From positions 1-11,490 of IMG/VR virus record IMGVR_UViG_2778261058_000014: a DNA stretch of 11,490 nucleotides; one strand, given 5' to 3'. Shown one piece after another: positions 4,800 to 5,137 of this stretch. Under the pieces are notes generated by a model. The model saw only the letters and a list, made by a program, of their open reading frames with translations. It was not told the DNA's origin and did no database searches. The position numbers were made by a program, and so were the translations under genes. This DNA comes from a virus. Its lineage: Duplodnaviria > Heunggongvirae > Uroviricota > Caudoviricetes. Position 1 is the stretch's first letter, and the number at the start of each line of letters is the position of its first letter.

Positions 4800-5137
4800 C
4801 AACTGTCTACCAACTGTCTACTGATATAATTTATTGATTTATTTCATATTATTCACACGTGAATAAAAAATAATCTATCAACTATCTACCAACTGTCTAC
4901 CGCATTAATGCATTGATAATTAATGATTTTTTCAAAATGGTAGACAGAGTAGACAGTTAAAAGAGAAATTTTAAAAATGAACCCTTAACTATCTGTTTTT
5001 ATATACCCCCGTGGTTTAGGAATATAGAAACAACTGTCTACTCTCTACCACACTTAAAAATATCTATACAATTCAATGCATTAATTGGTAGATAGTTGGT
5101 AGAGGGTTAAGTATTACTGTCTACCAACCGTCTACCT
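4800..5137. repeat. AT-rich iteron array, probable replication origin: about 11 copies of CAACTGTCTAC / GTAGACAG in both orientations plus AATGCATTAAT repeats
   Basis: Read directly: iterons at 4800-4810, 4811-4821, 4879-4889, 4890-4900, inverted at 4939-4958, 5031-5049, inverted at 5087-5108, 5117-5137. Sits immediately 3' of the primase/helicase gene. Confidence 0.75.

Follow-up and report, generated by a model that had tools for sequence, protein, structure and literature searches.

We found that positions 4800 to 5136 of the window (the whole 11,490-nucleotide stretch of DNA analyzed here) very probably act as the origin for vegetative replication of a phage-inducible chromosomal island (PICI) of the Gram-negative type, bound by the island's own replication protein (Rep). 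This reading is based on the enrichment of iterons in the region, the precedent of the island EcCICFT073 and the repeat core shared with it, the homology of the Rep C-terminal region to a known origin-binding domain (PDB 1KA8), the occurrence of similar arrays in related loci, the covariation of iterons with Rep, and the presence of a single iteron cluster. From these observations, we infer Rep binding, duplex melting, and an initiation site within the window element. The initial annotation had proposed that the region is a satellite origin to which the replication protein encoded next to it binds; the gene order, array position, and repeat core of EcCICFT073, together with the P4-type origin-binding domain, argue in favor of that proposal.

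The (C)AACTGTCTACC-type repeat occurred 12 times in the region, on both strands and organized in six pairs (Table 1). About eleven iterons in direct and inverted orientation had been annotated: the repeats and their orientations were borne out, but the number is 12. When we searched for AACTGTCTAC with up to two mismatches, 12 matches were detected in 4801 to 5135 versus 8 in the other 11.1 kb, against an expectation of 6.5 for the whole window. The hexamer TCTACY was similarly concentrated, with 12 of the 14 occurrences in the whole window falling inside 4800 to 5137. In composition-matched shuffles of the region, this hexamer averaged 0.34 copies (maximum, 4), and none of 20,000 shuffles reached 12. 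The 12-mer iteron consensus was CAACTGTCTACC, with C6, T9, C10, T11, A12, and C13 invariant in a 17-column alignment. Spacing within pairs was exactly 11 bp in four of the six. In one relative (L033), pair 1 was replaced by a tandem run of three copies, showing that iteron copy number drifts. On one side, the array is bounded by the Rep stop codon (5164, minus strand); on the other, the next minus-strand gene starts at 4794 or 4782. Its distance from the stop codon of the 601-aa ORF on the same strand is 28 bp, in agreement with the original placement of the array directly 3' of the replication gene.

Table 1. Coordinates of the candidate replication origin, its components, and the neighboring genes in the window
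Feature	Position	Strand	Description
PerC	3968-4255	-	Located after the ProQ/FinO-like gene
ProQ/FinO-family gene	4252-4794	-	Directly downstream of the putative origin; a neighbor, not part of it
Iteron pair 1	4800-4822	+,+	Two CAACTGTCTAC copies, 11-bp spacing; adjoins the ProQ/FinO-like gene
AT-rich spacer A	4823-4878		G+C 0.17; IHF-consensus match and DnaA-box-like palindrome
Iteron pair 2	4879-4901	+,+	CAACTATCTACC and CAACTGTCTACC, 11-bp spacing
AT-rich spacer B	4902-4938		37 bp, G+C 0.19; contains AATGCATTAAT and an IHF-consensus match
Iteron pair 3	4939-4959	-,-	ACTCTGTCTACC and TAACTGTCTACT, 9-bp spacing
Central segment between inverted modules	4960-5030		71 bp; contains AACTATCTGT and CCCCCGTGG
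Iteron pair 4	5031-5049	+,+	CAACTGTCTACT and CTACTCTCTACC, 7-bp spacing, overlapping
AT-rich spacer C	5050-5086		37 bp, G+C 0.19; contains AATGCATTAAT; flanking iterons point inward
Iteron pair 5	5087-5109	-,-	CAACTATCTACC and TAACCCTCTACC, 11-bp spacing
Iteron pair 6	5114-5136	+,+	TTACTGTCTACC and CAACCGTCTACC, 11-bp spacing; nearest the Rep stop codon
Rep, annotated "DNA primase family protein"	5164-6969	-	601 aa; Pfam and PHROG matches
Origin-binding domain coding region	5194-5499	-	Rep aa 491-592; phmmer match to 1KA8
Class-specific "wing" segment	5215-5310	-	Rep aa 554-585; covaries with iteron class

The G+C content of 4801 to 5100 was 0.29, compared to 0.45 to 0.6 in the flanks, and the three spacers within the array (56 to 58, 37, and 37 bp) ranged from 0.17 to 0.19, confirming the AT-rich spacers noted at the outset. 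The least stable duplex of the region coincided with spacer A (4820 to 4870; 30-mer ΔG of approximately -29 versus a window mean of -40.6 kcal/mol). We observed that the array is built from two modules, each consisting of a 37-bp spacer with iterons pointing inward from either side, which are inverted copies of one another around the 71-bp center. This corresponds to an inverted duplication of ∼78 bp (4879 to 4959 versus 5031 to 5109), with one extra iteron pair on each outer side. Exactly two perfect copies of AATGCATTAAT were present, at 4904 to 4914 (minus strand) and 5075 to 5085 (plus strand); these had been described as repeats in their own right, but they belong to the inverted duplication rather than to an independent repeat family. 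Within the central segment, we detected a degenerate iteron-like sequence (at 4987 to 4996) and a G+C island (at 5006 to 5014), the latter invariant in 10 relatives. Exact matches to the IHF consensus were located on the minus strand at 4827 to 4839 (spacer A) and 4906 to 4918 (spacer B, TATCAATGCATTA), and both were kept in E. ruysiae despite substitutions. A DnaA-box-like palindrome, TTATTCACACGTGAATAA, spanned 4849 to 4866 and included the only perfect DnaA-box match (4849 to 4857). Dependence on DnaA was considered and rejected, since roughly half of the 10 close relatives compared did not have this box in perfect form. Among close relatives, mean conservation of the array region was ∼90%, and iterons were no more conserved than spacers, a comparison that is uninformative because the whole region is conserved to this extent. 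A search for distant similarity in a phage database matched the region to no phage record.

An alternative reading is that the functional unit is a structured RNA, such as a small RNA working with the ProQ/FinO-like protein, or else a hairpin or cruciform formed in the DNA. A homolog of the ProQ/FinO RNA chaperones is indeed encoded next to it, and the single strand folded far better than its shuffles (-52 kcal/mol, z = -8.25), such that a long hairpin is possible. However, this fold is explained by the inverted orientation in which the ∼78-bp iteron module is duplicated. An Rfam search returned no match above noise, and no tRNA was detected. In addition, those relatives whose origins are colinear and nonpalindromic do not have the hairpin, and most relatives have no ProQ gene. 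We consider a structured RNA exceedingly unlikely as the function of the region.

To the protein predicted to bind the origin, profile comparisons assigned an N-terminal alpha/beta region (aa 1 to 140), a D5_N domain (aa 156 to 285), an SF3 helicase P-loop domain (DUF5906; aa 319 to 427, with the P-loop motif GPGGSGKS at aa 320 to 327), and a C terminus of the Pox_D5/P4-alpha type. Residues 491 to 592 were homologous to the origin-binding domain of P4 alpha (PDB 1KA8; phmmer, E = 9e-20); assignment of this domain rests on the sequence match to 1KA8, as the full-length AlphaFold model of Rep had a mean pLDDT of 42. The label "primase/helicase" given initially to this protein held for the second half, given the SF3 helicase domain, but is unproven for the first: profile searches detected no primase domain in the N-terminal 140 aa. 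Residues 232 to 434 matched PDB 7OLA, an entry named "DNA primase" (E = 4e-09). The score against TIGR01613 ("P4 family primase C-term") was below the cutoff, and the match of Rep to PHROG 2249 ("DNA primase") began no earlier than position 334 of the profile. Judging from its sequence, we regard primase activity of Rep as unproven. Across the Rep homologs of loci L003 to L025 and P4, we observed three unrelated N-terminal modules fused to one helicase and origin-binding body: the 140-aa alpha/beta module of the window, a "...SDALFSCVY(R/S)WVNGH..." domain, and a type that brings the whole protein to P4-alpha length (∼780 aa; L011, L025, and P4). The class of iteron (see below) was independent of the type of N-terminal module.

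Related loci were sought by scanning one genome per species, yielding 23 further Enterobacterales loci. In all but one of the 23, the Rep gene had an iteron cluster no more than ∼350 bp from its 3' end, whatever gene followed; no iteron array was seen 3' of the Rep gene in L025. Assigning iterons by their most frequent 8-mers (degenerate in L013), we distinguished about five core classes: TGTCTACC or TATCTACC (the window, EcCICFT073, L003, L007, L011, L012, L018, L022, and L023); TGTTCACC, the P4 iteron (L004 to L006, L008 to L010, L020, and L021); TGTCCGCC (L015 and L017); TGTCCACC (L016); and TCTCCACC (L014, L019, and L024). Iteron class tracked the wing segment of Rep, not the helicase body or the rest of the protein. 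In the TGTCTACC group, this segment contained a five-residue insertion (KGPDKGR). Residues 564 to 578 of the window Rep read KRAKCTKGPDKGRVI, and the counterpart in L004 was DKRKTKHGIR.

Discordant pairs of loci made this relationship apparent. L007 and L004 were 95% identical in the helicase body but 47% identical in the wing, and their iterons were TGTCTACC and TGTTCACC, respectively. Similarly, the L024 and L020 proteins shared 99% of the body but 50% of the wing, with TCTCCACC versus TGTTCACC iterons. Conversely, the N termini of the window and L011 proteins were unrelated (8%), but their wings were 78% identical and their iterons were the same. In a label-permutation test of wing minus body identity, 0 of 5,000 permutations reached the observed value; because the 25 sequences compared are mutually related and the test does not correct for this, we regard the discordant pairs as the stronger evidence. 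Across colinear origins, all ∼12 iteron positions switched class together while the motifs in the spacers were kept, and most origins contained the module of inward-pointing iterons around a 35- to 37-bp AT-rich spacer, usually twice. The iteron had been reported to differ from that of P4 and taken to suggest a specificity distinct to this replicon. It does differ, and a distinct specificity is supported because relatives with an 85 to 95% identical helicase body pair the P4 iteron with a different wing segment; the iteron is not unique to this replicon, however, since EcCICFT073 shares the core. Literature searches returned no open-access paper on how the P4 origin-binding domain recognizes DNA, nor any later one addressing the diversity of iterons among PICI or P4-like replicons. 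As a separate observation, CTTAAACGCATATTTTTTAATTTTATAG recurred ∼5 to 30 bp past the last iteron pair in the colinear origins of L004, L006, and L008 to L011, whatever the iteron class, and was absent from the window origin. This motif may act in priming or unwinding, or it may drive transcription of the genes downstream as a promoter.

The comparison of relatives also bears on the possibility that the repeats are operators for a transcription regulator of the ProQ/FinO and PerC genes and not replication sites. The last iteron pair lies 6 to 18 bp from the start codon of the ProQ/FinO-like gene (RefSeq relatives start at an ATG equivalent to 4782), and the region must therefore carry or pass transcription signals. 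A weak sigma-70-like match was detected on the minus strand from 4899 to 4870, with its -35 element inside an iteron. However, there were 3 such promoter-like matches versus 2.0 expected in shuffles, and the -10 element varied among relatives. More generally, promoter and terminator scans of the region detected nothing above shuffled expectation, and no terminator separated the array from Rep. Given that an array follows Rep regardless of what lies downstream (SSB, hypothetical genes, or nothing), and that repeat class covaries with the DNA-binding domain of Rep itself, a purely regulatory role for these repeats is highly improbable. If the array is the origin, Rep binding may have a secondary effect on ProQ/PerC expression.

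The gene content of the window identifies it as a Gram-negative PICI of the EcCICFT073 type. All of its large ORFs are on the minus strand, and Rep is preceded upstream by DUF4222, small ORFs, an Icd-like gene, AntA, and an AlpA-like HTH gene; the array separates Rep from the ProQ/FinO-like gene, after which PerC is located. These features fit the PICI context, which comprises an AlpA-like regulator, unidirectional transcription, an integrase at a dedicated attachment site (seen in relatives L035 and L001), a size of ∼8 to 12 kb, and a lack of phage structural or lysis modules. The integrase lies just outside the window: a tyrosine integrase is present at the end of the island in L035 and, next to tRNA-Gly, in L001. 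L035, an E. coli island with 97.9% identity over 86% of the window, is inserted between smrA and a LysR-family gene; the same attachment site is on record for the PICI EcCIEC2733.1. The satellite nature of the element, as first proposed, is thus upheld, but the element is a PICI with the gene order of EcCICFT073 (AlpA-like HTH, Icd-like, DUF4222, Rep, iterons, and PerC) and, strictly speaking, does not belong with P4. The array region matched 205 of 5426 complete E. coli genomes (best identity, 96%), always on the chromosome.

Elsewhere in the window, we detected six exact copies of TTGACACTTT at 1438 to 1693 (five on the plus strand and the other on the minus strand, with intervals of ∼55 bp among the first three), compared to ∼1 copy expected in the whole window. 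This second array lies between a 59-aa ORF (1227 to 1406, minus strand) and a TerS-like HTH ORF (1700 to 2227, minus strand) and is a candidate packaging or regulator-binding site. Satellites require a packaging site, and short repeated motifs are typical of cosB and pac; the iteron array downstream of Rep might accordingly be asked to serve as a cos or pac site read by a terminase small subunit or redirecting protein. The likelihood of this is vanishingly small: no lambda-type cosN was present within the window, the position and repeat core of the array match the tested EcCICFT073 origin, and the TTGACACTTT array beside the TerS-like gene is the better candidate.

Several other features of the island were observed. 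A DUF4747 gene (1 to 894, minus strand) occupies the low-G+C left end (0.35 to 0.38; window positions 1 to 1050), where PADLOC returned no match; this end looks like accessory cargo at the distal end of the island. The ORFs at 2234 to 2905 and 2970 to 3563 (both minus strand) matched PHROG 6216 (545 positions) at positions 115 to 328 and 402 to 544, respectively, and the former also weakly matched DUF2213 and head-maturation-protease profiles. Either one gene has been split here, or a capsid-related satellite protein is encoded in a two-gene form. A 598-aa open frame (8255 to 10051, minus strand) had an Icd-like match at aa 550 to 593 only, and the rest was Ser/Cys rich, with a composition unlike that of proteins and no family match. 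In L036 (E. coli, 98.9% identical), PGAP called a 121-aa Icd-like gene on the strand of this frame, with a YlcI/YnfO gene and a small gene on the opposite strand where the window has the 598-aa frame. This frame is probably not a gene. Positions 8657 to 9773 had no match among the related loci L001 to L025. Finally, about four tandem copies of the decamers TTGTTCGCCG and CGTTGTGTCT were located at 11377 to 11427, near the integrase end of the island and upstream of the AlpA-like HTH gene (10897 to 11085, minus strand). These may be regulator sites or arm-type sites of the integrase.

The mechanism of P4 alpha serves as the model for how Rep might act at this origin. Once the island is induced and excised, Rep would use its C-terminal winged-helix domain to contact the twelve TGTCTACC-type iterons. 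Rep is an SF3 hexameric helicase and would be expected to bind iteron pairs without ATP, by analogy to P4 alpha and the Rep of the staphylococcal islands (SaPIs) (PMC9371898). With iterons paired, one helical turn apart in four of the six pairs, and modules inverted, Rep hexamers would come to sit to either side of AT-rich DNA. Rep would then melt this DNA and load itself as a 3'-5' replicative helicase, and the host polymerase would copy the excised island. Priming could come from the Rep N-terminal domain or from the host primase.

The origin type is already described and tested in EcCICFT073; the window is an ordinary further case, and the current picture of satellite replication is unchanged. 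The locus provides exact coordinates of a cis-acting replication site for building or disabling a replicon, in a PICI lineage present in about 100 to 200 of 5426 complete E. coli genomes. The comparative result is more useful than the locus: across P4-like and PICI replication proteins, iteron class and a segment of ∼30 residues in the origin-binding domain change together, which predicts which satellites can have replication machinery in common and which shut one another out, and the covariation nominates residues that may govern specificity. Because EcCICFT073-type Reps share TGTCTACC with ∼35% identity in the origin-binding domain, satellites that are unrelated but occupy the same cell might activate one another's origins or compete for them. 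We put forward only tentatively the broader idea that the wing segment and the 8-bp iteron form at least five exchangeable specificity classes across P4-like satellites and PICIs, a natural recognition code that is cassette-swapped with the whole origin, and that the inverted layout is a distinct solution for loading two hexamers. If true, an inverted-duplicated, cruciform-capable layout would be a structurally distinct way of achieving such loading.

Iteron plasmid origins such as those of pSC101, R6K, and RK2 carry direct iterons of 17 to 22 bp, use initiators that are not helicases, and depend on DnaA boxes and DnaB loading. Like the window array, they combine repeated binding sites for the initiator with an AT-rich region for unwinding and with IHF-like sites. 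In contrast, the initiator of the window is predicted to be an SF3 helicase, and its DnaA-box match is not conserved.

Similarity to P4 is closer. The P4 iteron is identical to that of the window at six of eight positions, and close relatives of the window Rep use the P4 iteron itself. The crr element of P4, with type I iterons, lies directly 3' of alpha (GenBank NC_001609), and the position of the window array is therefore homologous to that of crr. In P4, crr is a required cis element and not the initiation site, and since the Rep DNA-binding domain is also homologous to that of P4 alpha, the window array could be an enhancer of this kind, bound by Rep while replication starts at a second island site. 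However, P4 contains two clusters (ori and crr) 4.5 kb apart, and only one iteron cluster was detected in the window and in each of the complete islands L001, L002 (EcCICFT073), and L035. Moreover, the window array has the module of AT-rich spacer and inward-pointing iterons found in P4 ori proper; the spacer is 35 bp in both crr and ori, and the module occurs twice per element in P4 and in the window. Given the lack of a second cluster in these islands, and given that rep plus the 3' region sufficed for plasmid maintenance of EcCICFT073 according to the original report (PMC6092414), we judge an enhancer without initiation to be very unlikely and favor an origin. The duplication is inverted in the window but direct in P4 crr, and the common enterobacterial layout is colinear, making the inverted duplication the one structural peculiarity of this lineage. 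The wing segment of the window has its five-residue insertion relative to P4, and the N-terminal primase region of P4 alpha (∼330 aa) has no counterpart in the window Rep, which carries an unrelated 140-aa domain instead. Profile searches detected none of psu, delta, and sid in the window.

SaPI origins follow the same logic in a different host lineage, Staphylococcus. The SaPI study (PMC9371898) and work cited in it describe 6 to 12 iterons directly downstream of rep, arranged in opposite orientations on each side of a central AT-rich region. The same sources describe a Rep that is a self-loading SF3 helicase and reads iterons through a C-terminal winged-helix domain, with one hexamer proposed per side. 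The correspondence between Rep and iteron specificity known from SaPIs would also apply to the window, as suggested by the covariation described above. Unlike the window iterons, those of SaPIs are 5 to 6 nt long and unrelated in sequence, and protein similarity is confined to the helicase core.

The nearest precedent is EcCICFT073, the type element with which Fillol-Salom et al. (2018, ISME J) defined Gram-negative PICIs (PMC6092414). These authors place the PICI origin directly 3' of the replication gene, with two sets of iterons around an AT-rich region, and report that a temperature-sensitive plasmid carrying the EcCICFT073 pri-ori region was kept at the restrictive temperature only with rep and ori both intact. 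In the 288-bp intergenic region of EcCICFT073 (6997 to 7284), we counted 11 repeats of the CTGTCTACC/GGTAGACAG type. The two elements are both ∼11 kb, with unidirectional transcription and the order DUF4222, Rep, iterons, and, further on, PerC. Both have the CTGTCTACC iteron core in an array directly 3' of pri-rep, with iterons on both strands around AT-rich DNA. They differ in several respects: the Rep proteins are 44% identical overall and ∼35% identical in the origin-binding domain, the array is 337 bp in the window versus ∼240 bp in EcCICFT073, the inverted duplication of a 78-bp module with two outer pairs is a feature of the window array and not of EcCICFT073, and a ProQ/FinO homolog lies downstream of the array in the window but not in EcCICFT073. 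Because the gene order and iteron core are the same, we consider the window to represent a second lineage of an origin type already described and tested.
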